Shown here one piece after another: positions 3,918 to 59,077 of a stretch of 64,000 nt of DNA. A model generated the notes under the pieces. The model worked only from the letters and a program-made list of their open reading frames with translations. It made no database searches and was not told the DNA's origin. This stretch comes from Somniosus microcephalus. Taxonomy: Eukaryota. The position numbers were made by a program, and so were the translations under genes. The stretch covers positions 183,644,001 through 183,708,000 of the forward strand of contig CM126209.1 of assembly GCA_052327205.1 (NCBI GenBank), written 5' to 3'. The first letter of the stretch is position 1; the number at the start of each line of letters is the position of its first letter.

Positions 3918-4152
3918 CAAATTTCTCTCCACGGATGTTGCCTGACTTGCTGAGTTTTTCCAGCATTTTCTGTTGTTATTTCCGCCATTCAATAAGATCA
4001 TGGCTGATCTGATCCTAACCGCCAATCCACTATCACAGAACCATCTCCTGAATCTAACAGAATTAGACACACGAAATAGGAGCAGGATCAGGCTACACGG
4101 CCCCTGGGCCCGCTCCGCTGCCCACAGGGCCATGACCGATCCGAACCTAGAC

Positions 4153-7104
4153 TCATGTCCAAATTCCTGCCCGCTCCCCGTAACCCTTAATTCCCTTTAC
4201 TTCTAGGAAACTGTCTATTTCTGTTTTAAATTTATGTAATGATGTAGCTTCTACAGCTTTTTGGGGCAGCATATTCCATGGACCTACCACCCTCTGAGTG
4301 AAGTAGTTCCTCCTCATCTCAGTTTTGAAAGAGCAGCCCCTTATTCTAAGACTATGCCCCCTAGTTCTAGTTTCACCCATCATTGGGAACATCCTTACCG
4401 CATCCACCCGATCAAGCCCCTTCACAATCTTATATGTTTCAATAAGATCGCCTCTCATTCTTCTGAACTCCAATGAGTAGAGTCCCAATCTACTCAACCT
4501 CTCCTCATATGTTCATCCCCTCATCCCCGGGATTAACCGAGTGAACCTTCTTTGTACTGACTCGAGAGCAAGTATGTCCTTTCTTAAGTATGGACACCAA
4601 AACTGTACGCAGTATTCCAAGTGCGGCCTCACCAGTACCTTGTACAACTGAAGCAATACCTCCCTATTTTTATATTCTATCCCCCTAGCAATGAAAGCCA
4701 ACATTCCATTGGCCTTCTTAATCACGTGCTGCACCTGCATACTAACCTTTTGAGTTTTGTGCACCAGGACCCCCAGATCCCTTTGTACTTCAGTACTTTC
4801 AAGTTTCTTGCCATTAAGATAATAACTTGCTCTACGATTTTTCCTGCCAAAGTGCATAACCTCACACTTTCCAGTATTGTATCCCATCTGCCAAATCTCT
4901 GCCCACTTACTTAGCCTGTCGATGTCCCCTTGCAGGTTTTTTATGTCCTCCTCACTCACTACTTTCCCTCCCATCTTAGTATCATCTACAAACTTTGATA
5001 TGTTACACGTGGTCCCCTCCTCCAAATCGTTAATATAGATTGTAAAGAGTTGGGGACCCAGCACTGACCCCTGCGGAACACCACTAGTTACTGATTGCCA
5101 GTCTGAGAATGAACCATTTATCCCAACTCTCTGCCTTCTGTTAGATAGCCAATCCTCTATCCATGCCAGAATATTACCCCCAATCCCGTGATTTTTTATC
5201 TTAAGCAATAATCTTTTGTGTGGCACCTTGTCAACTGCCTTTTGGAAGTCTAAATACACTACGTCCACTGGCTCCCCTTTATCCACCCTATACGTTACTT
5301 CCTCAAAGAACTCCAGCAAATTTGTCAAACATGACTTCTCCTTCATAAAACCATGCTGATTTTGTCCTATTAAATTATGATTATCCAAATGTCCTGTTAC
5401 TGTCTCCTTAATAATGGACTCCAAAATTTTACCTACCACAGATGTTAGGCTAACCGGTCTATAGTTTCCAGCCTTCTGTCTACTGCCCTTTTTAAATAAG
5501 GGTGTTACATTAGCAGTTTTCCAGTCTGCCAGGACCTTTGCCGAGTCCAGGGAGTTTTGGAAAATTATTACCAATGCATCCACAATCCCTACCGCCACTT
5601 CCCTCAAGACCCTTGGATGTAAGCCATCGGGTCCAGGTGATTTATCTGCCTTGAGTCCCATTATTTTACCGAGTACCACTTCCTTAGTGATTTTGATCGT
5701 GTTTATCTCCTCCCCCCCTTTAGCCCCCTGTTTGTCCAGTGTTGGGATATTCTTAGTGTCTTCTACTGTAAAGACTGATGTAAAATATTCATTCAGTGTT
5801 TTTGCCATCTCCATATTTTCCACCATTAATTTCCCGGTCTCATCCTCTAAGGGACCAACATTTACTTTAGCCACCCTTTTTCTTTTTATATAACTGTAAA
5901 AACTCTTACTATCTGTTTTTATATTTTGTGCTAATTTACTTTCATAATCTATCTTCCCTTTCTTAATCAATCTTTTTGTTATTTTTTGCTGTCTTTTAAA
6001 GTTTTCCCAATCCTCTATCCTCCCACTAGATTTGGCTACCTTATATGCCCTTGTTTTTCGTCGAATACTATCCTTAATTTCTTTACTTAGCCACGGATGG
6101 CTGTCTTTTCTTTTACACCCTTTTCTTCTCAGTGGAATATATATTTTTTGGAAGTTGTAAAATAACTCCTTGAATGTACACCACTGATCATGTATCGTCT
6201 TACCCTTTAATCTATTTTCCCAATCCACTCTACTCAATTCCGCTCTCATACCTTCATAGTCTCCTTTATTCAAGCTCAGCACGCTTGTTTGAGATCCAAC
6301 CTTCTCACCCTCTAATTGAATATGGAATTCAACCATGTTATGGTCACTCATTCCAAGGGGATCCTTTACTAGGACATTTTTAATTAATCCCGTCTCGTTA
6401 CACAGGACCAGATCTAAGGTTGCTTGCCCCCTGGTCGGTTCAGTTACATACTGCTCAAGAAACCCATCCCTAATACAGTCAATGAACTCATCCTCAAGGC
6501 TGCTCTGCCCAATTTGATTTGTCCAATTAATATGATAGTTGAAATCCCCCATAATTATAGATGTTCCCTTATTACAAGCCTCAACTATTTCCTGATTGAT
6601 ACTCCGTCCAACAGAGTTGCAACTGTTCGGAGGCCTATAGACTACGCCCACTAGTGTTTTTTTCCCCTTATTATTCCTTACCTCCACCCAAACTGTTTCA
6701 TTATCCTGATCTTTTGACCCAATATCATTTCTCTGTATTACAGTGATTCCTTCCTTTATTAACATAGCCACCCCACCTCCCCTTCCTTCCTGCCTGTCCT
6801 TCCTGATCGTTAAATAACCTGGTATGTTTAATTCCCAGGCATTGTCACCCTGCAGCCATGTTTCTGTAATGGCCACAAGATCATACCCATATGTAGTTAT
6901 TTGTGCCATTAACTCATCTATTTTGTTACGAATGCTACGTGCATTCAGATAGAGAACTTTCAAAGTTGTTTTGTGACACTTAGTTCCTGCTTTTGCCCTT
7001 TTTATTACTTTACCTTTTACTCCATACCTTCTGCCCCTTCCTGACATGCTCTGGTTTTTAATTTCCCCACTGCTACCTAAGTCTATTACCTTCTCTGTTG
7101 TCAT
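4153..7104 (-). pseudogene. CR1 ORF2 (APE endonuclease + reverse transcriptase), one frameshift near 4500-4513
   Basis: [24 protein letters not shown] (APE); [23 protein letters not shown] (variant of FADD); C-terminal RRMRGDLIETYK/TRGHSL in ORF 4153..4497. Confidence 0.93.
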
Positions 7105-7141
7105 TTTTATTATTTGCTCTCTAGAACCTCCCCCCCACTAG

Positions 7142-8087
7142 TTAGTTTAAAGCCCTCTCTACAGCCCTAGTTATATGATCCGCCAGGACTCTAGTCCCAG
7201 CACTGGCCAAGTGAAGCCCGTCCCAACAGAACAGCTCCCTCCTGCCCCAGTACTGGTGCCAGTGTCCCAGGAAGCAAAACCCATTTCTCCCACACCAGTC
7301 TTTGAGCCACGCATTTAACTCTCTAATTTTATTTGTCCTAGCCAAATTCGCTCATGGCTCAGGTAATAATTACCCTTGTGTTTCTGCTTTTTAATTTGAC
7401 CCCTAGCTGCTCAAACTCCCTCAGCAGAACCTCCTTCCTTGTCCTATCTATGTCGTTGGTACCAACATGGACCACGACAACTGGATCCTCCCCCTCCCAC
7501 TCCAAGTTTCTCTCCAGTCCAGAGGAGATGTCCTTAACCCTGGCACCGGGCAGGCAACACAGCCTTCGGGACTCTCGCTCTCGGCTGCAAAAAACTCTAT
7601 CTATCCCCCTAACGATACTATCCCCTACCACTACAACATTTCTTTTAACTCCCCCTACTTGAATGGCCCCCTGCTCCACGGTGCTGTGGCCAGGTTGCTC
7701 ATCCTCCCTGCAGTCCCTGCTCCTGTCCCCACAGGGAGTAAGAGCCTCGAACCTGTTGGACAAGTGCAAGGGCTGCGGCTCCTCCAACACTACCTCCTGG
7801 ATCCCCGTACCTGCCTCACTTCTAGTCACACCATCCTGACCCTGGCCACGGACTACATCTGAATTAATTAATCTAATTGGTGTGACTACCTCATGATACA
7901 CAGAGTCCAGGTAACTCTCCCCCTCCCTGATGTGTCTCAGTGTTTGAAGCTCGGTCTCCAGCTCTTCAACATGGAGCCGGAGTTCCTCGAGCAGCCAACA
8001 CTTACTGCAAATGTGATCACCGTGAGCATCAATGGTGTCCACCAGCTCCCACATATTGCAGCAGTAACACATCACCTGATCTCCCAT
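7142..8087 (-). pseudogene. CR1 ORF1 (CxxC zinc finger/leucine zipper + SGNH esterase), frameshifted by a short deletion near 7365
   Basis: CYCC...CSKC, LEELRLHVEELETEL, VVGDSIVRG, HVGTND, DGLHL; deletion visible against the second copy at ~57640. Confidence 0.9.
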
Positions 8088-8299
8088 TCTATGTAATTAA
8101 TTAAATTTATTAATAGTATTCCTAAATACCCTCTGCTCCGATCCTAGATGGTGAATATCACACCTTAGAAACTATAAACCAAAGAGATTTAAGCTTAAAA
8201 AGGGAGAAATACTTACCAACCAATCACTTACCCGCTTTCTGGTGATGTCACACTTGGATTACTTTTGACCTCCCTCCTCCCAGACTGGAGATTGGTAAA

Positions 8300-9510
8300 C
8301 CTTACCTGGTCTCTGGGACTTTTATAGCCCCGCTCTGCCGCTCAGGATTCCCGCCGACGCACTGAGGCCTTGCCTGGTCTCTGGGACTTTTATAGCCCCG
8401 CTCTGCCGCTCAGGATTCCCGCCGACGCTGTGAGGCCTTACCTGGTCTCTGGGACTTTTATAGCCCCGCTCTGCCGCTCAGGATTCCCGCCGACGCTGTG
8501 AGACCTTACCTGGTCTCTGGGACTTTTATAGCCCCGCTCTGCCGCTCAGGATTCCCGCCGACGCACTGAGGCCTTACCTGGTCTCTGGGACTTTTATAGC
8601 CCCGCTCTGCCGCTGAGTTCCCGCCGACGCTGTGAGGCCTTACCTGGTCTCTGGGGCTTTTATAGACCCGCTCTGCCGCTCAGGATTCCCGCCGACACAC
8701 TGAGGCCTTACCTGGTCTCTGGGGCTTTTATAGCCCCGCTCTGCCGCTCAGGATTCCCGCCGACGCTGTGAGGCCTTACCTGGTCTCTGGGACTTTTATA
8801 GCCCCGCTCTGCCGCTCAGGATTCCCGCCGACGCTGTGAGGCCTTACCTGGTCTCTGGGACTTTTATAGCTCCGCTCTGCCGCTCAGGATTCCCGCCGAC
8901 GCTGTGAGGCCTTACCTGGTCTCTGGGACTTTTATAGCCTCGCTGCTGCCGCTCAGGATTCCCGCCGACGCTGTGAGGCCTTACCTGGTCTCTGGGACTT
9001 TTATAGCCCCGCTCTGCCGCTCAGGTTTCCTGCCGACGCTGTGAGGCCTTACCTGGTCTCTGGGACTTTTATAGCCCCGCTCTGCCGCTCAGGATTCCCG
9101 CCGACGCTGTGAGGCCTTACCTGGTCTCTGGGACTTTTATAGCCCCGCTGCTGCCGCTCAGGTTTCCTGCCGACGCGGTGAGGCCTTACCTGGTCTCTGG
9201 GACTTTTATAGCCCCGCTCTGCCGCTCGAGATTCCCGCCGACGCTGAGGCCTTACCTGGTCTCTGGGACTTTTATACCCCGCTCTGCCGCTCAGGATTCC
9301 CGCCGACGCACTGAAGCCTTACCTGGTCTCTGGGACTTTTATACCCCGCTCTGCCGCTCAGGATTCCCGCCGACGCACTGAAGCCTTACCTGGTCTCTGG
9401 GACTTTTATACCCCGCTCTGCCGCTCAGGATTCCCGCCGACGCACTGAAGCCTTACCTGGTCTCTGGGGCCTTTTATACCCCGCTCTGCCGCTCAGGATT
9501 CCCGCCGACG
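8300..9510 (-). repeat. 18 tandem copies of a ~68-bp GC-rich monomer forming the CR1 5' end; each has TATA box, Inr-like site and splice donor
   Basis: Unit starts at 8300, 8368, 8436, 8504, 8572...9451; minus-strand unit CCTCA(CA/GT)GCGTCGGCGGGAATCCTGAGCGGCAGAGCGGGGCTATAAAAGTCCCAGAGACCAGGTAAGG. Confidence 0.95.
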
Positions 9511-10390
9511 TCGCTAGAGCTTTCACCTCCTGTTGGGTTGCCCGTTTCGGGGTACCGGCAGACATCTCTTCCGACCGTGGGCCACAATTTTCCTCGGAGC
9601 TCTGGAACGCTGTAGCTCAGGGGCTCGGCACCAAACTTCATCGCACCACCGCCTATCATCCACAGGCGAACGGCCTTTGCGAGCGATTCCACAGGTCGCT
9701 TAAAGCCACCCTTCGGGCCAGTCTTCAAGGTGCAAGATGGGTGGACAAACTCCCACAGGTCCTTTTGGGTCTTCGTACGGTGCCCAAAGAAGACCTGCAA
9801 TCGTCCTCAGCCGAACTCGTTTATGGCCAGCCTCTCCGTGTACCAGCGGATTTCCTCACTTCTCCCACAGAGCCATGGTCCACCTCCCAGCAACTCGTCA
9901 GCCACCAGGAAGCGGCCAGATGCTTCGCTCCAGTGCCTACATCAAATCACGGCTTACAGAGCTCCCATGTGCCAGCGGAGCTGAAGAATGCCAAGTACGT
10001 ATTTATCCGCCACAACACTCACCGGGATCCGCTCAAGCCCCCTTACACTGGTCCTTTCCGCGTCATCGAATCGGGAGACAAATCCTTTTCGGTCGATATC
10101 GGAGGAAAGCCGGATCAAATTTCAGTGGACCGGTTGAAGCCGGCTCACCTGGACCTGGACCGCCCAGTCGTCGTCGCTCAACCGCCGAAACGTGGCCGAC
10201 CGCCTGCAGCTGCCATGCCAGATCAACCACAGCCGCCCGCCAACTCGACCACACTCGCCACGCCAGCTCAACCACAACCGCCTGCGAGCTCGACCACCGT
10301 TCATCAGCTTCCTCTGCAAGGTTACCGAAGTCGCTTGGACAGACTTGTCAGGCCTCCTCGACGTCTCACTTTTGCTGGTAAAGATAATTC
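9504..10390 (+). pseudogene. Gypsy integrase C-terminal half (frameshifted)
   Basis: SDRGPQF core motif, YHPQANGLCERFHRSLK, LLGLRT...SSAELVYG, LKPPYTGPFRV, SVDRLKPAHL. Confidence 0.88.
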
Positions 10391-10401
10391 TGGGGGCCGC
10401 A

Positions 10402-10763
10402 TGTGGCGAAGCCACCAAAGGACTCAGATCATTTGTAAATAATTCCTTTAACAACATGTTAGCTACAGTCTGTGTCTGTATCTTTATTTATGCTGTTTAA
10501 CTGTACAGAGTGTGGTTGCTTTAACAGTGCGGCTAAAACGTGATGACGTCACACCGTTCATCACGTGATCCCCCACTGGCGGGAAAATGTGATGACGTCA
10601 TGACGTCAGCCACAGGACTGCAGGAGCAGTCCTCGTGGAGCCTCCAGAGAGAGCAGACCTACATTCGATGTTATCCTGCAGTTTCTTGTTAAAGCCTGTT
10701 TGCTTCATTAAAGTTCGTTTTGTTTGATCGCCTGAGTAGAACTCAATCTTTTAGTTAGGAACA
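10402..10763 (+). repeat. Putative 3' LTR of the Gypsy element
   Basis: Begins TGTGG just after the purine tract; ATTAAA poly(A)-signal-like motif ~10707; 3' boundary (CA at ~10763) uncertain because the 5' LTR is outside the window. Confidence 0.55.
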
Positions 10764-21334: not shown

Positions 21335-23520
21335 TAAAAGAATTTGTTTATGCGATGTGGGCATCGCTGGCAAGGCCAGCATTTATTGCCCATCCCTAAT
21401 TGCTCTCGAGAAGGTGCTGATGAGACGCCTTCTTGAACCAGTGCAGTCCGTGTGGTGAAGGTACCCCCACAGTGCTGTTAGGGAGGGCGTTCCAGGATTT
21501 TGACCCAGCGACGATGAAGGATCAGTGATATATTTCCAAGTCAGGATGTTGTGTGACTTGGAGGGGAACTTGGAAGTGGTGGTGTTCCCATGCGCCTGCT
21601 GCCCTTGTCCTTCTATGTGGTAGAGGTCGCGGGTTTGGGAGGCGCTGCTGAAGAAGCCTTGGCGAGGTGCTGCAGTGCATCTTGTAGATGGTACACACTG
21701 CAGCCAGGGTACGCCAGTGGTGGAGGGAGTGAATGTTTAAGGTGGTGGATGGGGTGCCAATCAAGCGGGCTGCTTTGTCCTGGATGGTGTCGAGCTTCTT
21801 GAGTGTTGTTGGAGCTGCACTCATCCAGGCAAGTGGAGAGTATTCCATCACAATCCTTACTTGTGCCTTGTAGATGGTGGAAAGGCTTTGGGGAGTCAGG
21901 AGGTGAGACACTCAATGCAGAATACCTAGCCTCTGACCTGCTCTTGTAGTCACAGTATTTATGTGACTGGTCCAGTTAAGTTTGTGGTCAATGGTGACCC
22001 CCAGGATGTTGATGGTGGGAGACTGGGTGATGGTAATGCCATTGAATGTCAAGGGGCGGTGGTTAGGCTCTCGCTTGTTGGAGCTAGTCATTGCCTGGCA
22101 CTTCTGTGGCGCGAATGTTATCTGCCACTTATCAGCCCAAGCCTGAATGTCACCCAGGGCTTGTTGCATGTGGGCATGGACTGCTTCATTCTCTGAGGAG
22201 TTGTGGATGGCACTGAACACTGTGCACTCATCAGCGAACATCCCCATTTCTGACCTTATGTTGGAGGGAAGGTTGATGAAGCAGCTGAAGATGGTTGGAC
22301 CTAGGACACTGCCCTGAGAAACTCCTGCAGCGATGTCCTGGGGCTGTGATGATTGACCTTCAACACCACAACCATCTTCCTTTGTGCTAGGTATGACTCC
22401 AGCCAGTGGAGATTTCCACCCCCCCCCCCGATTCTCATTGACTTCAGTTTTACTAGGGTTCCTTGATGCCACACTCGGTCAAATGCTGCCTTGATGTCTA
22501 GGGCAGTCACTCTCACCTCACCTCTGAAATTCAGCTCCTTTGTCCATGCTTGGACCAAGACTGTAATAAGGTCGGGAGCCAAGTGGTCTTGGTGGAACCC
22601 AAACTGGGCATCAGTGAGCAGGTTATTGGTGAGTAAGTGACGCTTGATAGCACTGTCGATGACATCTTCCATCACTTTGCTGATGATTGAGAGTAGACCG
22701 ATGGGATGGTAATTGGCTAGAATGGATTTGTCCTGCTTTTTGTGGACAGGACATACCTAGGCAGTTATCCACATTGCCGGATAGATGCCAGTGTTGTAGC
22801 TGTACTGAAACAGCTTGGCTAGAGGCGTGGCTAGTTCTGGAGCACAAGTCTTCAGCACGATAGCTGGAATGTTGTATCCAGTGCACTCAGCCGTTTCTTG
22901 ATATCCCATGGAGTGAATCGAATTAGCTGAAGATTGGCTTCTGCGATAGTGGGGACCTCAGGAGTAGGCCGCTATCAATCATCCACTCAGCACTTCTGGC
23001 TGAAGATGGTTGCAAACGCTTCTGCCTTGTCTTTTGACTCATGTACTGGGCTCCACCATCATTGAGGATGGGGATATTCAGGGAGCCTCCTCCTCCCGTT
23101 AGTTGTGTAATGGTCGACCACCATTCACGACTGGATGTGGCTGGGCTGCAGTGCTTTGATCTGATCTGTTGATTGTGGGATCGTTTAGCCCTGTCTATAG
23201 CATGCTGGTTTCACTGTTTAGCATGCATGCAGTCCTGTGCTGCAGCTTCCCCAGGTTGGCGCCTCATTTTTAGGTACGCCTGGTGCTGCTCCTGGCATGC
23301 TCTTCTACACTCCTTATTGAACCAGGGTTGGTCTCCTGGCTTGATGGTAATGGTAGAGGGAGGGCTATGCCAGGCCATGAGGTTACAGATTGTGGTGGAA
23401 TACAATTGTGCTGCTGCTGATGGCCTACAGTGCCTCATGGATACCCTGTTTTGAGCTGCTAGATCTGTTCTGAATCTATCCCATTTAGCACGGTGGTAGT
23501 ACCACACAACACAATGTAGG
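21335..23520 (-). mobile_element. Degenerate LINE of a distinct CR1/Jockey-group family (RT + 3' UTR)
   Basis: ALDIKAAFDRVWH, GVSQGSVLGP, FADE, TIYKAQVR...EYSPLAWMSAA; same family at 51808-52505 and 60500-61520. Confidence 0.85.
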
Positions 23521-26500
23521 GCTTCCTGCGCTATGTGGGAAATCAGGGGCACTTCCTGTGTCCCTGATGATCATGTGTGCGGGAAGTGTATCCAGCTGCA
23601 GCTGCTGACAGACCGCATTGCGGTGCTGGAGCTGTGAATGGATACATACTGGAGCATTCGCGATGCTGAGGACATCGTGGATAGCACGTTTAAGGAGTTG
23701 GTCACACCGCAGGTAAAGGCTGCACAGGCAGGAAGGGGATGGGTGACCACCAGGCAGAGTAGTAGGCACAGGCAGGTAGTGCAGGGGTCCCCCGTGGCCA
23801 TCCCCCTTGCAAACAGATATACAACTTTGGATATTGTTGAGAGAGATGGCTTATTGGAGGAAGGCAGCAGCAGCCAACTTCCTGGCACCATGGGTGGTCC
23901 TGCTGCACAGGACAGGAGGAAAAAGAGTGGGAGAGCTATAGTGATAGGGCATTCTATTTTAAGGGGACTAGATAGGCATTTCTGCGGCCGCAAATGAGAC
24001 TCCAGGATGGTATGTTACCTCCCTGGTGCAAGGGTCAAGGAAGTCTCGGAGCAGCTGCAGGGCATTCTGGAGAGGGAGGGTGAACAGCCAGTTGTCGTGG
24101 TGCATATAGGTACCAACGATATAGGTTAAAAAAAAAGGATGAGGTCCTAAAAGCTGAATATAGGGAGTTAGGAGGTAAATTAAAAAATAGGACCTCAAAG
24201 GTAGTAATCTCAGGATTGCTACCAGTGCCACGTGCTAGTCAGAGTAGAAATAGAAGGATATTTCAGATGAATACAGGAAACTTTGTGCTATCCGGCACCG
24301 ATGGGACCGAGCTGTTGCAGTTCCCTCAAAACTGCCGGACACACCAGCGTTAATGTTGAAGCATACAGAGCTTTTCATCTCTGTATCTGACAACAAACAC
24401 TGTTGCTTAGCAACAGCTTCTAAACAGTCAGCCCGTGCCTTGGAAGCGTCTCTCTGAAGCTGTTGCTAAGCTACAGAGACTTTGCAGAGCCTGACTGTTG
24501 AAAAAAAAAGGCCACGAGAAGAAAAAAAACCTAACAAAACGGCTCCTGATTTTTGCCGGTGGCTCGAGCTTGCTGGACAGTTAGCCTCCGGATAACACAA
24601 AGTTTCCTGTATATGGCTAGAAGAATGGTGCAAGGGGGAGGGATTCAAATTCCTGGGACATTGGAACCGGTTCTGGGGGAGGTGGGACCAGTACAATCTG
24701 GACGGTTTGCACCTGGGCGGAACCAGAACCAATGTCCTAGGGGGAGTGTTTGCTAGTGCTGTTGGGGAGGGTTTAAATTAAAATGGCAGGGGGTTGGGAA
24801 GCTGTGCAAGGAGACAGAGGAAAGGGAAGCAAGGATAGAAACAAAAGACAGGAAGGAGAAAAGCAAAAGTGGAAGGCAGAGAAATCAAGGGTGTAAATCA
24901 AACAGGGCCACAGTAAATAAGAGTTCTAAAAGGACTAAGCGTTAAAAAATCAATCCTGAAGGCTTTGTGTCTTAATGCGAGAAGCATTCGTAATAAGGTG
25001 GATGAATTAGCTTGCAAATAGATGTAAATGGATATGATATAATTGGGATTATGGAGACATGGCTCCAGGGTGACCAAGACAGGGAATTCAACATCCAGGG
25101 GTATTCAATATTCAGGAAGGACAGGAGAAAAGGAAAAGGAGGTGGGGTAGCATTACTGGTTAAAGAAGAGATTTACACAATAGTAAGGAAAGATATTAGC
25201 TCTGATGATGTGTAATCTCTATGGGCAGAGCTGATAAATACCATGGGGCAGAAAACGTTAGTGGGAGTTATATACAGACCCCCAAACAGTAATGCTGAGG
25301 TTGGGGATGGCATTAAATGGGAAATTAGAGACACGTGCAATAAGGGCACAGCAGTTATCATGGGTGACTTTAATCTACATATAGACTGGGCTAACAAAAT
25401 TAGTAACAATACTGAGGAGGAGGAATTCCTAGAGTGTATACGGGATGGTTTCCTGGACCAATATGTCAAGGAACCAACTAAAGATCAGGCCATCTTAGAC
25501 TGGGTATTATGTAATGAGAAGGGATTAATTAGCAATCTTGTTGTGCGAATCCCCTTGGGGAGGAGCGATCATAATATGATAGAATTCTTCATAAAAATGG
25601 AGAGTGAAGTAGTTGACTCAGAGACTAGGGTCCTGAATTTAAATAGAGGAAACTATGATGCTATGAGGCACGAGTTGGCTAGGATGGATTGGGGAACGTT
25701 ACTTAAAGGGTTGATGGTGGATAGGCAATGGCAAACATTTAAAGATCGCATGGATGAACTATAGAATTTGTTCATCCCTGTTTGGCCTAAAAATAAAACA
25801 AAAAAGGGTGACTCAACCGTGGCTAACAAGGGAAATTAGGGATAGTATAAGATTCAAGGAGAGGACATATAATGTGGCCAGAAAAAGCAGCAAACCTGAG
25901 GATTGGGAGCAGTTTAGGATTCAGCAAAGGACGACAAAAGGATTAATTAAGAGGGGAAAAATAGATTATTAGAGTAAGCTTGCAGGGAACATAAAAACTG
26001 ACTGTAAAAGCTACTATAGATATGTGAAAAGATAAAGAATGGTGAAGTCAAGCATAGGTCCCTTGCAGTCAGAATCGGAGGAATTTCTAATGGGAACAAT
26101 GAAATGGCAGACCAATTAAATACATATTTTGGTTCTGTCTTCACAAAGGAGGACACAAATAATCTCCCAGAGATGTCGGGGAACATAGGGGCTAATGAGA
26201 GAGAGGAACTGAATGAAATCAGTATTTGTAGGGAAATGGTGTTAGGGAAATTGATGGGATTGAAGGCTGATAAATCCCCAGGGCCTGATAATCTACATCC
26301 TAGGGGACATAAGGAAGTGGCCCTACAAATCATAGATGCATTGCTGGTCATCTTCCAAAATTCTATAGACTCTGGAACAGTTCCCATGGATTGGAGGGTA
26401 GCTAATGTAACCCCACTATTTAAGAAGGGTGGTAGAGAGAAAATGGGGAATTATAGACCGGTAAGCCTGACATTGGTAGTGGGGAAAATGCTAGAGTCCA

Positions 26501-27851
26501 TTGTAAAAGATGTCATAGCAGAGCACTTGGAAAACAGTGACAAGATCGGACACAGTCAACATGGATTTACAAAAGGTAAATCATGCTTGACTAATCTACT
26601 GGAATTTTTTGAGAATGTAACTGGTAGAATAGATAAGGGAGAACCAGTGGATGTGGTGTATTTGGACTTTCAGAAGGCTTTAGATAAGGTCCCGCATAAG
26701 AGATTAGCGTGTAACTTTAAAACACATGGCATTGGGGGTAAGGTACTGTTTTGGATAGAGAACTGGTTGGCAGACAGGAAGCAAAGAGTTGGAATAAACA
26801 GGTCTTTTTCTGAGTGGCTGGCAGTGACTAGTGGGGTACCACAGGGATCGGTGCCAGGACCCCAGCTATTCACAATATATATAAATGATCTAGACGAGGG
26901 AACTAGATGTAACATCTCCAAGTTTGCAGATGACACAAAACTGGGTGGGCGTGTGTGCTGTGAGGATGCTGCAGAGAAACTCCAGTACGATTTGGACAGG
27001 TTGGGTGATTGGGCAGATGCATGGCAGATGCAGCATAATGTGGATAAATGCGAGGTTATCCACTTCGGTGGCAAAAACAGGAAGGCAGATTATTATCTGA
27101 ATGGCAATAGATTGGGAAAAGGGGAAGTGCAACGAGACCTGGGTGTCCTTGTGCACCAGTCGCTGAAGGTAAGCATGCAGGTGCAGCAGGCGGTTAAGAA
27201 GGCAAATGGTATGTTGGCCTTCATAGCGAGAGGATTTGAGTACAGGAGCAAGGAAGTCTTGCTGCAATTGTACAGGGCCTTGGTGAGACCACACCTTGAG
27301 TATTGTGTGCAGTTTTGTGTGCCTTATCTGCGGAAAGATGTTCTTGCCATGGAGGGAGTGCAGCGAAGATTCACCAGACTGATTCCTGAGATAGCAGGAA
27401 TGACGTATGAGGAGCAATTGGGTCAATTAGGCTTATATTCACTAGAGTTTAGAAGAATGAGAGGGGATCTCATTGAAACTTATAAAATTCTAACAGGAGT
27501 AGAGAGACTAGATGCAGGAAGGATGTTCCCGATGGTGGGGGAGTCCAGAACCAGGGGTCACAGTCTAAGGATAAGGGGTAAGCCATTTAGGACTGAGATG
27601 AGGAGGAATTTCTTCACCCAGAGAGTGGTGAACCTGTGGAATTCTCTGCCACAGAAGGCAGTTGAGGCCAATTCATTAAATATATTCAAGAAGGAGTTGG
27701 ATATATTTCTTGAGCCTAAAGGATCAAGGGATATGGAGAGAAAGCAGGGACAGAGTACTGAATTTGGATGATCAGCCATGATATGATTAAATGGTGGAGC
27801 ATGCTCAAGGGGCCGAATGGCCTACTCCTGCTCCTATCTTCTATGTTTCTA
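23521..27851 (+). mobile_element. CR1 LINE with decayed ORF1 esterase and ORF2
   Basis: ORF1 remnants 23525-24780 (VIGHSILRG, HIGTND); ORF2 pieces 25012-27771 incl. 555-aa RT (FADD); CTATGTTTCTA tail at ~27850. Confidence 0.9.
24274..24609. mobile_element. Tc1/pogo-type MITE inserted in CR1 ORF1
   Basis: TIR CAGGAAACTTTGTG(C/T)TATCCGG at both ends; TA duplication at 24272-24273 and 24610-24611. Confidence 0.88.
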
Positions 27852-33135: not shown

Positions 33136-34207
33136 CAGGTAGACTATCCTTTATCCGAAATTCTGAAAGCCGAAAACCTCTAAAAACCGAAAGTTTTTTC
33201 GTTCAGCGTAAGTCGTGCGCACGACATGACCAGAGTGGCGCACGACTTACGCTGAGCAGGGCAGAGGGTCACAGAGTTCCCTCCTGGGTAGGAGATTGCA
33301 GGCCGAGCCAGGCAGTGTGAAGGAGGTACCGGGAGAGTGAACCCAACAATACAGCGGCCGGTCCGATAGCTGCAGCGGCCCGTCCGATATTCTTTTCTCC
33401 CCCGACCCGACCCGAACTGAACCGCGGCCCGTCCGATATTCTTTTCTCCCCCCGACCCGACCCCCGACCCGTCCGATATTCTTTTCTCCGGACCCGACCC
33501 GAACCGCAGCCCGTCCGATATTCTTTTCTACCCCCACCCGACCTGAACCGCGGCCCGTCCAATATTCTTTTCTCCCCCCTGACCCCCCCGGACCCCCCCC
33601 GACCCCCCCGGACTCCCCCCGACGACCCCCCCGACCCCGCCCGGACTCCCCCCGAGCCCCCTGACCCCGACGACCCCCCCGACCCCGCCCGGACTCCCCC
33701 CGAGCCCCCTGACACCGACACCCTCCCGACCCCCCCGACCCCCCCCGACCCCGACCCCCCCCCGACCCCCCCCCGGACACCCCCGACCCCGACCCCCCCC
33801 ACAAGACACCGCCCGGACCCCCACCAGACCCCCCCAACCCCGACCCCCCCCAGACCCCCCCCCAGACACGCCCCCCCGGACCCCCCCCGGACCCCCCCCT
33901 GGACCCCCCCCAGACCCCCCCCGACCCTGACCTGAACAGCGGCCCGTCCGATATTCTTTTCTCCCCCCCCCCCCCACCCGACCTGATTTGCGGGTCAGCT
34001 TAGTAGGAGTCAGCCGATATCCGGCTTTCCAGAGAAGCAGAAAGGGGAATGAGACACGGAACAGTCGCAAGAGGTAGCCTGAACTTTAAAAATTTATATT
34101 AAATACAAATTTCCCAGTCTTATAATAATACCTTCTGAAATCCGAAAAATTCCGAAAACCGAAACTCAGCTGGTCCCAAGGCTTTCGGATAAGGGATGGT
34201 GTACCTG
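33136..34207. mobile_element. pogo/Tigger-like non-autonomous element with internal C-rich repeats
   Basis: TIR CAGGTAGACTATCCTTTATCCGAAA / CAGGTACACCATCCCTTATCCGAAA; TA duplication; subterminal CCGAAA repeats. Confidence 0.85.
33355..33985. repeat. C-rich low-complexity array (CCGACCCC-type) flanked by repeats of GCGGCCCGTCCGATATTCTTTTCTCCCC
   Basis: Directly visible; source of the spurious Gly-rich ORFs. Confidence 0.9.
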
Positions 34208-35356: not shown

Positions 35357-36085
35357 TGGCAATAGGATATTTTTCTTTGCCTATGTTTCATCATTCATCA
35401 AAAGATGTTTGCATTTTTCTCTGAAGGAAAATCACCTCTCGAAGATTTTTTTGCTACACATATAAATGACAATTGCAGTTTCTATTTCTTATAATTGTCG
35501 CATTCTTTGTGCATGTGTTTTGTATTGAGTTGTGTTGGATAATGATACAAGTGCTGATTTTAACCCCCCACACCTGACAAGAAAATAGAGGCAGCCTCCT
35601 GCCCTCTGGCTCATTGCTACACAAAGCATGCCAATTTAGCAGTGTCAAATCCACACAGGCGTTTGTCCCACCAAATGAGCGACTGAGCATTAAGATGGTG
35701 TCTGGGTTTGAATTTCTCCATCAGACCCGGAATTTTGAATTCTAATGAGGCCCGTACTCGCCTGCAGCGAAGGCCTCACACATGTCCCAAAACCCGGGAG
35801 TTAAAGTTACAGCTGGCGTAAGTGCAGCAAACAGCCAGAGGGCAGGAGGCTGCCTCTATTTTCTCGTCAGGTGCGGGGGGGTTAAAATCAGCACTCGTAT
35901 CATTATCCAACACAACTCATACAAAACACATCCACAAAGATGGTGACAATGATAAGAAATAGAAAGTGCAATTGTCATTTTAATAAATCAGCAAAAAAAT
36001 CTTCAAGCGATTTTCCTTCAGAGAAAGATGCAAACATCTTTCGATGAATGATGAAAAATAAGCAAAGAAAAATATCCTACTGCCA
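35357..36085. mobile_element. Foldback-like element with ~255-bp terminal inverted repeats, family unassigned
   Basis: 35357-35611 is the reverse complement (diverged) of 35833-36085; ~220-bp spacer; termini (T)GGCARTAGGATATTTTTC. Confidence 0.8.
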
Positions 36086-48998: not shown

Positions 48999-49894
48999 TC
49001 TATATGTATAAACGGATCGTTCTTTCTGTCTGTCTGTCTATCTGTCTGTCCTTCTGTCTGTCCTCGGGTGTGCGTCTGTCCGGCTATGCGCTCGAAAGTT
49101 ATACAGCGTACCTACGCGCGCGTTACCTCCGAAGAAAGCTTACGCTTCCGGGACGCTCGTAAGCATATTTACTTTTCGGTCGGACGAAAATTGTTCGCGC
49201 CTTATGCAAAAAACCTTCAAAATTAAACTCATTATCTGCTAGCATTGATTGACTGACGTCAAAGTTCGACCAATCCTGTGCCATCACGATTGACCAATCC
49301 TACAGTACGGTCCCCTGATGGTTGGCCAATCGGTGTGTGTGTGTGTGGGCGGGACTAATCGTTTTCATCTCAGGGATCTGGCAGCCATTGTTTCACTGCC
49401 ATTACTTCAGCTTCCAGCTCAAACTACTTTGATCATCCAGCTTTGAAAAAGTTAGTATCTCTTTTAAAAATAACATAAGATTTACCAAAAACGTTTTCTA
49501 AGTACTTTCACTTTCATCTTTCAAGGTATTAAAAGGTAGAAATGTTGCCCGGCAGCAGATTCACACAGAGAGAGAGAGTGACAGGGCCTGAAAGCCCTTT
49601 GATCATCCAGCTTTGAAAAAGTTAGTATCTCTTTTAAAAATAACATAAGATTTACCAAAAACGTTTTATAAGTACTTTCACTTTCATCTTTCAAGGTATT
49701 AAAAGGTAGAAATGTTGCCTGGCAGCAGATTCACAGAGGGACAGACAGACAGGGCCTGAAAGCCTGGGACTCGATTTAAAATGTTGCCCGGCAGCAGATT
49801 CACAGAGGGACACAGAGAGGCCCCAAAGCCTGGGACTCGATTTAAACCGCCCGGCCCAAAACAGCCCTGGCAAAGCCGGGCTCCCCCCAGCTAG
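48999..49894 (+). mobile_element. Non-autonomous Helitron
   Basis: A|TC 5' end (TCTATATGTATAAA), (TCTG)n tract, 3' hairpin GCCCTGGC-AAA-GCCGGGC at 49864-49881, CTAG|T 3' end, no TSD. Confidence 0.85.
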
Positions 49895-54464: not shown

Positions 54465-54470
54465 GCCCCC

Positions 54471-57377
54471 TACTTCTAGGAAACTATCTATTTCTGTTTT
54501 AAATTTATTTAATGATGTAGCTTCCACAGCTTTCTGGGGCAGCAAATTCCACAAACCTACCACCCTCTGAGTGAAGAAGTTTCTCCTCATCTCAGTTTTG
54601 AATGAGCAGCCCCTTATTTTAAGATTATGCCCCCTAGTTCTAGTTTCACCCATCATTGGGAACATCCTCACCGCATCCACCCGATCAAGCCCCTTCACAA
54701 TCTTATATGTTTCAATAAGATCGCCTCTCATTCTTCTGAACTCCAATGAGTAGAGTCCCAATCTACTCAACCTCTCCTCATATGACCACCCCCTCATCCC
54801 CGGGATTAACCGAGTGAACCTTCTTTGTACTGACTCGAGAGCAAGTATGTCTTTTCTTAAGTATGGACAACAAAACTGTATGCAGTATTCCAGGTGCGGC
54901 CTCACCAATACCTTGTACAACTGCAGCAATACCTCCCTGTTTTTATATTCCAACCCCCTAGCAATAAAAGCCAACATTCCATTGGCCTTCTTAATCACTT
55001 GCTGCACCTGCATACTAATTTTTTGAGTTTCGTGCACCAGGACCCCCAGATCCCTTTGTACTACAGTACTTTCCAGTTTCTTGCCATTAAGATAATAACT
55101 TGCTCTATGATTTTTCCTGCCAAAGTGCATAACCTCACACTTTCCAGTATTGTATTCCATCTGTCAAATCTCTGCCCACTTACTTAGCCTGTCTATGTCC
55201 CTTTGCAGGTTTTTTATGTCCTCCTCACTCACTACTTTCCGTCCCATCTTTGTATCATCTGCAAACTTTGATATGTTACACTCGGTCCCCTCCTCCAAAT
55301 CATTAATATAGATTGTAAAGAGTTGGGGACCCAGCACTGACCCCTGCGGAACACCACTAGTTACTGGTTGCCAATCTGAGAACGAACCATTTATCCCAAC
55401 TCTCTGCTTTCTGTTAGAGAGCCAATCCTCCACCCACGCCAGAATATTACCCCCAATCCCGTGATTTTTTATCTTGAGCAATAATCTTTTGTGTGGCACC
55501 TTGTCAAATGCCTTTTGGAAGTCTAAATACACTACGTCCACTGGTTCCCCTTTATCCACCCTGTATGTTACTTCCTCAAAAAACTCAAGCAAATTTGTTA
55601 AACATGACTTCCCCTTCATGAAACCATGCTGAGTTTGCCCTATTAAATTATGTTTATCCAAATGTCCCGTTACTGTCTCCTTAATAATGGACTCTAACAT
55701 TTTACCAACCACAGATGTTAGGCTAACAGGTCTATAGTTTCCAGCCTTCTGCCTACTACCCTTTTTAAATAAGGGTGTTACATTAGCAGTTTTCCAATCT
55801 GCCGGGACCTTTGCTGAGTCCAGTGAGTTTTGGAAAATTATTACCAATGCATCCACAATCCCTACCGCTACTTCCCTCAAGACCCTAGGATGCAAGCCAT
55901 CAGGTCCAGGGGATTTATCCGCCTTGAGTCCCATTATTTTACCAAGTACCACTTCCTTAGTGATTTTAATTGTATTTAGTTCCTCCCCCCCTAGAGCCCC
56001 CTGTTTGTCCAGTGTTGGGATATTCTTAGTGTCCTCTACTGTAAAGACTGATACAAAATAATTGTTCAGTGTTTTTGCCATCTCCATGTTTCCCACCATT
56101 AATTTCCCGGTCTCATCCTCTAAGGGAACAACATTTACTTTAGCCACCCTTTTTCTTTTTATATAACTATAGAAACTTTTACTGTCTGTTTTTATATTTT
56201 TTGCTAATTTACTTTCATAATCTATCTTCCCTTTCTTAATCAATCTTTTTGTTATTTTTTGCTGTCTTTTAAAGACTTCCCAATCTTCCATCCTCCCACT
56301 AGATTTGGCTACCTTATATGCCCTTGTTTTTAGTCGGATACTATCCTTAATTACTTTACTTAGCCACGGATGGCTATCTTTTCTTTTACACCCTTTTTTC
56401 CTCAGTGGAATATATTTTTTTTGGAAGTTGTAAAATAACTCCTTAAATGTACACCACTGGTCATGTACCGTCTTACCCTTTAATCTATTTTCCCAGTCCA
56501 CTCTAATTAATTCCGCTCTCATACCTTCATAGCCTCCTTTATTCAAGCTCAGCATGCTTGTTTGAGATCCAACCTTCTCACCCTCTAATTGAATATGGAA
56601 TTCAACCATGTTATGGTCACTCATTCCAAGGGGATCCTTTACTAGGACATTTTTAATTAATCCCGTCTCATTACACAGGACCAGATCTAAGGTTGCTTGC
56701 CCCCTGGTCGGTTCAGTTACATACTGCTCAAGAAACCCATCCCTAATACACTCAATGAACTCTTCCTCAAGGCTGCTCTGCCCAATTTGATTTGTCCAGT
56801 TAATATGATAATTAAAATCCCCCATAATTATAGCTGTTCCCTTATTACAAGCCTCAACTATTTCCTGATTAATACTCCGTCCAACAGAGTTGCAACTGTT
56901 CGGAGGCCTATAGACTACACCCACTAGTGTTTTTTTCCCCTTATTATTCCTTACCTCCACCCAAACTGTTTCACTATCCTGCTCCTTTGACCCAATATCA
57001 TTTCTCTGTATTATAGTGATTCCTTCCTTTATTAACATAGCCACCCCACCTCCTCTCCCTTCCTGCCTGTCCTTCCTGATTGTTAAATAACCTGGTATGT
57101 TTAATTCCCAGTCATGGTCACCCTGCAGCCATGTTTCTGTAATGGCCACAAGATCATACCCATATGTCATTATTTGTGCCGTTAACTCATTCATTTTGTT
57201 ACGAATGCTACGTGCATTCAGATAAAGAACTTTCAAATATGTTTTGCAACACTTAGTTCCTGTTTTTTCCCTTTTTATTACTTTACTTTTTACTCCATAC
57301 CTTCTGTCCCTTCCTGACACATTCTGTTTTTTAATTCCCCCACTGCTACCTAAGTCTATGACCTTCTCTGTTGTCAT
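54471..57377 (-). pseudogene. CR1 ORF2 with one TGG>TGA stop at 55164-55166 and loss of the last few codons
   Basis: 737-aa ORF and the ORF from 55160 are in the same frame; KWAEI*QMEY vs KWAEIWQMGY in copy 1; FADD intact. Confidence 0.92.
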
Positions 57378-57415
57378 TTCTATTATTTGCTCTCTAGAAA
57401 CCTCCCCCCCACTAA

Positions 57416-58339
57416 TTAGTTTAAAGCCCTCTCTACAGCCCTAGTTAAATGATTCGCCAGGACTCTAGTCCCAGCACTGGCCAAGTGGAGTCCGTCCCAA
57501 CAGAACAGCTCCCTCCTGTCCCAGTACTGGTGCCAGTGTCCCAAGAAGCAAAACCCATTTCTCCCACACCAGTCTTTGAGCCACGCATTTAACTCTTTAA
57601 TTTTATTTATCCTAGCCAAATTCGCTCGTGGCTCAGGTAATAACCCAGAGATTATTACCCTTGAGGTTCTGTTTTTTAATTTGACCCCTAGCTGCTCATA
57701 CTCCTTTAACAGAACCGTCTTCCTTGTCCTATCTACGTCGTTTGTACCAACATGGACCATGACAACTGGATCCTCCCCCTCCCACTGCAAGTTTCTTTCC
57801 AGCCCAGAAGAGATGTCCTTAACCCTGGCACCAGGCAGGCAACACAGCCTTCGGGACTCCCGCTCTTGACTGCAGAGAACCCTATCTATCCCCCTAATGA
57901 TACTATCCCCTACCACTACAACATTTCTTTTTACTCCCTCCACTTGAATGGCCCCCTGTACCACGGTGCTGTGGCCAGGTTGCTCATCCTCCCTGCAGTC
58001 CCCGCTCCCGCCCTCACAGGGAGTAAGAACCTCGATCCTGCTGGACAAGAACAAGGGCTGCGTCTCCTTCAACACTACATCCTGGATCCCTGTACCTTCC
58101 TCACTCATAGTCACACCGTCCTGTCCCTGACCACGGACTACATCTGCAGTAATTAACTTCATAGGTGTGACCATCTCCTGAAACATAGAGTCCAGGAACT
58201 TCTCCCCCTTCCTGATGTGTCGCAGTGTCCGAAGCTCGGTCTCAAGCTCCATAACATGGAACTTGAGTTCCTCTAGCAGCAAACACTTGTCGCAGATGTA
58301 ATCACCGTTAGCCTCAATGGGGTTCACCGGCTCCCACAT
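57416..58339 (-). CDS. CR1 ORF1 (zinc finger/leucine zipper + SGNH esterase)
   Basis: [25 protein letters not shown]; the true start may lie slightly upstream. Confidence 0.88.
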
Positions 58340-58615
58340 CTCGCAACAGTATTATTAGTTATGAAGACCCTGCCCGGATATATATGATAATATCACACCA
58401 CTATTCAATAGGACTTACCAACTTAAAGGTATGAAAGAGAAGAGAAGGAAGAAAACCAACCAACCAGCTGATCACCAACCTCCTCCTTGAATACTGTCTG
58501 TGGAGCCTGTTTGGTTGACTCGTCTCGCTGCTCCGCCTCCACAGTGCTGTCTAAGCCTGGGAGTGGGGAACAAAACAGAGCAAAAAACACACCCTCACCT
58601 CCCACTTATCCGAAC

Positions 58616-58861
58616 TCTCCCACTTAGCAAAACTCCAACAGCACTCAATGCACAAAGCACTCCGTGCACTGCACTAGCCCCTCCCCTTTTATACCCGGAT
58701 TCTACTTCCTGTTTAAACTGCCCAAGAGTTTAAAAAACCCTTAAAAAATTAAACTTACTTCAAATAATTGCCTTCTTAACACACTAAAATTCACAAAATA
58801 CACTTAAATGATTTTTCTCCCACTTAGCAAAACTCCAACAGCACTCAATGCACAAAGCACT
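58616..58861 (-). promoter_or_regulatory. CR1 5' terminal module: 46-bp direct repeat at 200-bp spacing with internal ETS-like site and TATA box
   Basis: Identical 58616-58661 and 58816-58861; minus strand CAGGAAGT-AGAATCCGGG-TATAAAAGGGG with first T at 58693. Confidence 0.7.
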
Positions 58862-58864
58862 ACA

Positions 58865-59077
58865 CTACACTCCCCTGCAACACTTCCCCCCTCTGGGGAG
58901 AAGGCCGCCGAGCTGCCCGACCCTTCCCGCGTGGCTGGACGCCACTGGGCACAGGAGCTACACTCCCCTGCAACACTTCCCCCCTCTGGGGAGAAGGCAG
59001 CCGAGCTGGCCGACCCTTCCCGCTTGGCTGGACGCCACTGGGCACAGGAGCTACACTCCCCTGCAACACTTCCCCCT
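58865..59077 (-). repeat. 93-bp coding tandem repeat (2.3 copies) in Myb-gene exon 3
   Basis: Unit starts 58865, 58958, 59051; encodes EVLQGSVAPVPSGVQPSGKGRPARLPSPQRG. Confidence 0.9.

Follow-up and report, generated by a model that had tools for sequence, protein, structure and literature searches.

The window analysed here, a 64,000-nucleotide stretch of Somniosus microcephalus DNA, contains a CR1 element whose 5′ end carries a 200-bp unit. This unit is a genuine tandem monomer, and the subfamily to which it belongs is multi-copy. Its repeat is present in the copy itself, arrays of at least two units occur in RNA, many variant copies exist, and a homologous end is found in a catshark consensus. 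In the following, R denotes the 46-bp repeat, U the 154 bases between the R copies, and R+U the 200-nt monomer. The 5′ end is probably an array of tandem TATA promoters of the form R-(U-R)n-leader, in which one promoter is spent per jump and the spares are kept. The activity of the units as promoters, the position of the start, the part played by the TATA box, and the way in which the array is refilled are predicted.

Structure of the 5′ end and of the element behind it

All parts of the CR1 copy lie on the minus strand. The outer R (58816..58861) forms the extreme 5′ end and the inner R (58616..58661) recurs inside. The perfect 46-bp repeat that the first-pass annotation had placed at 58861 and 58661 is indeed identical between 58861-58816 and 58661-58616, with an offset of exactly 200; it does not extend on either side, and no other similarity lies on the same diagonal. 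An exact 46-mer has a log10 p of about −27 per site, and the number of site pairs is about 10^9.3, which excludes a chance origin. The other exact repeats of at least 25 nt with a spacing of 20-1000 in the window, in a scan that left out the 68-bp and C-rich arrays, all came from the 170-bp and 93-bp tandem arrays. A blastn search of the element against the window gave no match for R or U elsewhere in the element or in a sister CR1.

Between the two R copies, U (58662..58815) consists of an AT-rich spacer, an ETS-like site, and a TATA box; the monomer has 37% GC and a CpG o/e of 0.43. The consensus TATA box occupies 58686..58693 and its first T, at 58693, is 32 nt ahead of the inner R, so that the inner copy begins at base 33 from this T, as annotated earlier. 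The putative ETS-like 8-mer (58704..58711) starts at 58711, ahead of the TATA box, again as annotated, and a 5′ splice-donor-like hexamer lies at 58753..58758. ETS, E2F, initiator, and splice donor are what we take these and the corresponding motifs below to be. Outside the 68-bp array, the background of TATAWAWR in the window is 0.49 per kb. The inner R is the predicted head of an RNA driven by the internal TATA box. Position 58661 is a GA step, and the pyrimidine-purine start sites closest to it are at 58663 and 58665; therefore, +1 may lie 2-4 nt upstream of R. A single-copy leader, or tether, of 264 nt (58352..58615) connects the inner R to ORF1 and for the most part shows no relation to the sister's leader.

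At the outer junction, the 93-bp unit of the host element is traceable to 58865, and R begins at 58861. The three bases in between (58862..58864) match neither host nor monomer. Reads from other copies of the host, a Harbinger, depart from the window sequence at 58864-58870, which confirms a host end near 58865. The earlier description of about 5 nt of junction ambiguity stands in part, as the bases can be read as a 5-nt duplication and also as three unplaced bases (58864-58862).

Judged by its coding sequence, the element is a near full-length but broken CR1 with an esterase ORF1, inserted in a Harbinger. ORF1 (57416..58351) encodes a Cys-rich N-terminus, a leucine-rich stretch, and a GDSL/SGNH esterase (PF13472, E 1e-9), and is stopped at the position where its relatives start. 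Its best named matches are from stingray (74%), catshark (59%), and chimaera (49%), which makes a cartilaginous fish the most likely source of the DNA; no related loci were found in viral and metagenome contigs. ORF2 (54471..57440) matches APE endonuclease and reverse transcriptase domains (PF03372, PF14529, PF00078) and has an in-frame stop at codon 759. The copy ends prematurely at about 54471; the sister extends about 130 nt further at its 3′ end and retains the conserved CR1 3′ tail, which is lost here. It is dead, since stops replace the ORF1 start, ORF2 is interrupted, and this 3′ end is missing.

The insertion cut the Myb/SANT gene of the Harbinger (PF13873; 58865..60053, minus strand), which contains the 93-bp coding repeats. 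The Harbinger-type DDE transposase ORF (PF13359; 53187..54464, plus strand) adjoins the broken 3′ end of CR1, with no more than a few bases between this end and the stop codon of the transposase (54465-54471), and the two Harbinger genes are convergent. Host DNA between them seems to have been lost too, and it seems that one deletion removed both this DNA and the CR1 tail. The number of 93-bp repeats in the Myb gene varies, and the coverage of this gene in the RNA run described below is deeper than that of CR1.

Tandem units in public reads

Four of 22 listed public runs were mapped on 58200-58950. Three of these (X1, X2, and X4) are contig sets of unrecorded kind, labelled as organisms A, B, and C, with 5931, 3936, and 706 records, respectively. 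Among the data sets listed as containing the stretch, none is recorded as RNA. The fourth, X20, is an RNA run of 101-nt reads, about 24% of which was read, with 2490 reads mapped. In X20, seven reads with three different starts join 58815 back to 58616 and thus read U-R-U head to tail with a 200-nt period. On their short side, they extend 32 letters past the shared 46. They amount to about 0.19-0.59 of the U depth, and few 101-nt reads can span the joint. Seven such reads seem too many for library template switching, though they come from a single run and could include such switches, which counts against the promoter array. The joint is in none of the contigs of X1, X2, and X4, as expected given that the 46-nt repeat exceeds the word length of the assembly.

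In the three runs labelled as three organisms, many variant contigs cover U. Summed contig depth, which is not copy number, was higher over U than over the leader by factors of 1.85 (X1), 1.35 (X2), and 1.63 (X4), and in each run, all five U bins exceeded the highest of the nine leader bins. The depth of the two R places summed to 718k, 914k, and 8.6k, compared to 751k, 983k, and 9.6k for U plus leader. As far as summed depth can be equated with units, these values fit R-(U-R)n-leader, where n would be about 1.4-1.9.

The first-pass annotation had considered that the duplication might be unique to this insertion and that other copies might lack the 200-bp periodicity. Neither was found, given the U-R-U reads, the greater depth of U, the catshark homolog, and an RNA joint that leads back exactly 200 nt. 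A one-off duplication, arising by a template switch in this insertion or by an assembly error, would agree with the single copy of this 5′ end within the window and with the fact that no listed contig covers the whole stretch. It is largely refuted by the many variant contigs with U deeper than the leader, by the U-R-U reads in X20, and by the same layout in the catshark consensus, and we regard it as highly improbable.

The greater depth of U also argues against plain 5′ truncation, which predicts the opposite gradient. A narrower explanation is that the monomers are real and that this particular 5′ end arose by ordinary truncation or later deletion, which by chance stopped at the R boundary. 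The slope of depth across U bears on this, as phased ends predict 0 and random ends 0.39 of leader depth. The slopes were −0.06 (X1), 0.35 (X2), and 0.40 (X4), so that X2 and X4 fit random truncation, whereas X1 is flat. One loose end in X2 has a variant R ending several bases inside, and the locus was rearranged, given the loss of the copy's 3′ end and of host DNA; both observations are in favour of truncation. Its prior chance is about 0.045, and the same phase recurs in the sister element and in the available openings of five published consensuses. Together with the flat slope in X1, this makes a chance truncation very unlikely.

Two earlier claims on the tandem promoter array are upheld in part. 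The expectation that copies consist of whole 200-bp units agrees with the 200-nt period in RNA; as to a common start base, the slope fits random phase in two of the three runs. The claim that the RNA began at +1 of an upstream 200-bp monomer gains from the existence of a tandem multi-copy monomer, but X20, an ordinary RNA-seq run of which about 24% was read, has no pile-up of read starts at 58661 or at 58861.

The reads also bear on the history of the copy. At 58638 and 58641, the inner and outer R have the same alleles and many other copies have different ones; the lineage has thus been homogenised, in a way compatible with more than one mechanism. Reads with a leader of the sister type leave the window sequence at 58351 in all four runs, and depth dips at 58356-58381. 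There is thus a sharp swap point of the 5′ UTR at the ORF1 start (58351-58352), which indicates that the ORF1 N-terminus was replaced in this copy or its subfamily. A 20-mer from R had two matches in metagenomes, two in prokaryote genomes, and none in viruses; all four match just those 20 bases and were dismissed as chance.

TATA boxes and 5′ ends of related elements

The sister CR1 (4066-9510) is 93% identical to this copy over 3881 nt, and the similarity ends at the ORF1 start. Upstream, on the minus strand, its 68-bp units form an array (8300..9510) that contains 18 TATA boxes. The 68-bp unit has 61% GC and a CpG o/e of 0.79, i.e., it is CpG-richer than the 200-nt unit, and contains an E2F-like motif. 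An initiator-like TCAGT follows each TATA box by 32 nt, and the opening of the array is about 36 nt downstream of the box position and 4 nt beyond TCAGT. The 5′ end thus lies 32 nt after a TATA box in one element and about 36 nt in the other, whose 68-mer is unrelated, and the established spacing between TATA box and start is about 30 nt. The chance of both ends falling within a window of 28-36 is 0.045 × 0.13 = 0.006. The 68-bp array adjoins an integrase-like fragment at 9315-10442 (plus strand). A third, older CR1 (about 23500-27700, plus strand) has no unit or TATA box in the 480 bases read upstream of ORF1.

Published CR1-group consensuses (PMC13343379, Table S2) were read by eye over the first 400 nt of each. 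The 116 elasmobranch CR1 rows covered comprise stingray (19), whale shark (16), catshark (23), dogfish (20), white shark (20), sawfish (12), and skate (6); the table has additional rows for dogfish, white shark, whale shark, and chimaera beyond these, and many rows start inside ORFs. Over this part of the table, a tandem 5′ unit is present in 17 of the 116 consensuses, 11 of them with a TATA-like box and six without. Tandem TATA-bearing 5′ units are thus apparently common in shark and ray CR1s. Five of the 11 open 28-36 nt after the box, compared to an expected 0.97 (P 0.001), and among canonical boxes alone, three of seven are in phase, compared to an expected 0.65 (P 0.02), both calculated with approximate unit lengths. 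The in-phase openings are HypSab-12 (29 nt), RhiTyp-2a (32 nt), ScyCan-11b (34 nt), RhiTyp-7 (35 nt), and SquAca-15b (35 nt), although two of these five boxes are non-canonical and were chosen after looking. RhiTyp-11, ScyCan-19, ScyCan-6, CarCar-14, PriPec-4, and LeuEri-1 are out of phase. In the visible part of the table, HypSab_CR1-1 has two different TATA-like units stacked in series, which suggests that unrelated promoters can pile up, a possible route to 5′ UTR replacement.

The catshark consensus ScyCan_CR1-11b has a homologous R, an AT-rich U, and a TATA box in a unit of 289 nt, and by eye opens 34 nt after the box. The motif that it shares with the present element has one match in the window, at 58647-58663 (the inner R), and none in 100 shuffles. 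The distance from the TATA box to a shared GCAC is 36 nt in the visible catshark consensus and 26 nt here, while the ends lie at 34 and 32 nt. The spacing of GCAC shifts by 10 nt and the end does not, so that, for one copy compared to one consensus, the 5′ end follows the box. The dogfish consensus SquAca_CR1-15b is, by eye, a homolog of the 68-bp array with a degenerate box; it shares the leader and the ORF1 start with the sister CR1 and was classed as LINE/CR1 by its authors. The openings of these two homologs 34 and 35 nt after their boxes, again by eye, favour the connection that had been drawn with the relay of tandem TATA boxes at 8300-9510. Outside the elasmobranchs, the available tortoise consensus reads R-U(TATA)-R with an opening at 44, and that of a sturgeon R-U-R with no obvious TATA box. 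A 10-mer from R had no match in the visible part of the published consensuses.

The monomers could also be real and the promoter TATA-less, located at or downstream of the start, in R or in the leader, an arrangement known from other LINEs. The TATA box would then be incidental or part of an enhancer, no promoter would be lost per jump, and this copy would not be on its last one. Regulatory regions of L1 have been described as lacking TATA boxes (PMC7778262, available part), and the 5′ UTR of chicken CR1-B acts as an internal promoter (PMC2734521, available part). The six tandem consensuses without a box and the degenerate box of the dogfish homolog point the same way. Against a TATA-less promoter, the window has a canonical TATA box at the right distance in two unrelated monomers, the catshark end tracks the box across the 10-nt change in spacing, and the openings available show an in-phase excess for canonical boxes. 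We therefore consider it rather unlikely. The tandem TATA promoter array has to accommodate, in turn, that 58661 is not a pyrimidine-purine step, that the tortoise consensus opens at 44, and that six of the 11 boxed consensuses, as far as visible, are out of phase.

Promoter relay and comparison with known systems

According to the general description, a LINE needs a promoter that is internal and TATA-less, since an upstream promoter is lost at each jump. With a tandem TATA array, the upstream sites and the TATA box of U in each 200-nt unit would drive an RNA polymerase II start where the next R begins, about 30 nt downstream. The U that fired would be absent from the RNA, all downstream units would be retained, and the new insertion would start at R with n−1 promoters. 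The present copy would then stem from a parent with at least two units, one of which was kept. Arrays would need re-extension, by unequal crossing-over or by a jump of reverse transcriptase between R copies, or else lineages would run out. The earlier suggestion that this copy is on its last promoter would apply only if the leader is without a TATA-less promoter, and the point is moot here because of the ORF2 stop, the lost ORF1 start, and the lost 3′ tail.

We can also conceive, with considerable doubt, of R-U-R as an LTR-like module in a non-LTR element, in which U acts as a TATA-bearing U3 and R as the transcribed repeat. Reverse transcriptase reaching the 5′ end of the RNA would jump to the internal R and recopy U, so that the spent promoter would be regained within one cycle. 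If widespread, such a module would explain how elasmobranch CR1s, a quarter to a third of the genome, keep and swap conventional upstream promoters.

The relay idea is the known mouse L1 monomer model, and Loeb 1986 is cited for the monomer promoters of mouse L1Md. As in the present element, the L1Md types A, Tf, and Gf have tandem units of about 200 bp in variable number ahead of a single-copy tether, according to the available parts of PMC6454616, PMC9022269, and PMC7778262. Their spare units preserve the promoter, as proposed here. The 5′ ends of L1Md cluster at one unit phase that matches CAGE starts (PMC6454616 and PMC9022269, available parts); here, this copy, its sister, and five of the 11 visible consensuses are in phase, and the depth slope fits random phase in two of three runs. 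Unequal crossing-over and extension during cDNA synthesis have been proposed for the refill of mouse L1 arrays (PMC6454616, available part). L1Md belongs to the L1 clade and is CpG-rich and TATA-less with YY1/AP-1 sites, and the available text of PMC6454616 and PMC9022269 makes no mention of TATA. In contrast, the present element belongs to the CR1 clade, its unit is AT-rich with a canonical TATA box that lies entirely ahead of the predicted start, and a different, unrelated unit occurs on a 93%-identical body. Given its CR1-type ORFs, GC content, CpG o/e, and canonical TATA box, it is not a member of the L1Md class, though it would work like one.

Other systems share single aspects. In vertebrates, ORF1-less elements of the CR1 group have one to five subunits of 100-500 bp near the 5′ UTR (PMC13343379). 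In the available text, these are reported just for ORF1-less elements and without a function, whereas the element here has an esterase ORF1, and the main text, as far as available, does not mention TATA, promoter, tandem, or monomer. CR1 subfamilies of chicken, turtle, and pufferfish swap 5′ UTRs on a conserved body, as here, and a 32-bp direct repeat is mentioned in the turtle and pufferfish 5′ UTRs (PMC2734521, available part). Unlike the present element, chicken CR1-B has an E-box internal promoter of about 240 bp, and the same text makes no mention of TATA or a start site. HeT-A, TART, and Penelope have a promoter upstream of the start that derives from a tandem repeat, as proposed here, and for TART, a template jump between direct repeats has been proposed (PMC1636488 and PMC2377424, available parts). 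In those elements the promoter comes from the 3′ end of an upstream element or repeat, and that of Penelope is TATA-less according to the same partial texts; here, R and U had no match to the 3′ end of either CR1 in a blastn search against the window, unlike the HeT-A/Penelope type.

The present 5′ end is apparently the counterpart, in CR1 and with a TATA box, of the monomer promoter of mouse L1, and we found no earlier description of it. The literature was searched by title and abstract opening, with subscription journals and Repbase reports outside its scope, and gave nothing on TATA monomers in CR1. If true, stacked TATA units would be a second solution to promoter loss, found in a group, CR1, that accounts for 22-34% of the genome in sharks and rays (PMC13343379, available part). 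Since a TATA box sets the start to an accuracy of a few bases, the loss and gain of units could be counted copy by copy. Monomer-array refill, also a question in mouse L1, would thereby become directly testable. Moreover, with each full-length copy, TATA promoters would be spread across the genome of the host. The presence of two unrelated units on bodies with 93% identity also shows that promoters are replaced rapidly outside mammals, where, for L1, the available part of PMC5381506 reports no sign of an arms race of this kind.

A 5′ splice-donor-like motif, which may have a role in U1 binding, is present in both unrelated units of the window (58753-58758 and 8300-9510, both minus strand), and several published units have, by eye and in their visible part, a splice-donor-like motif just ahead of the TATA box. 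No splice joints were listed in X20 for 58200-58950, with about 24% of the run read. The window further contains a C-rich repeat region with 44-49 bp units (33350-33990), a 170-bp tandem duplication (49427-49764), and nested inverted repeats resembling a MITE (35357-36085).
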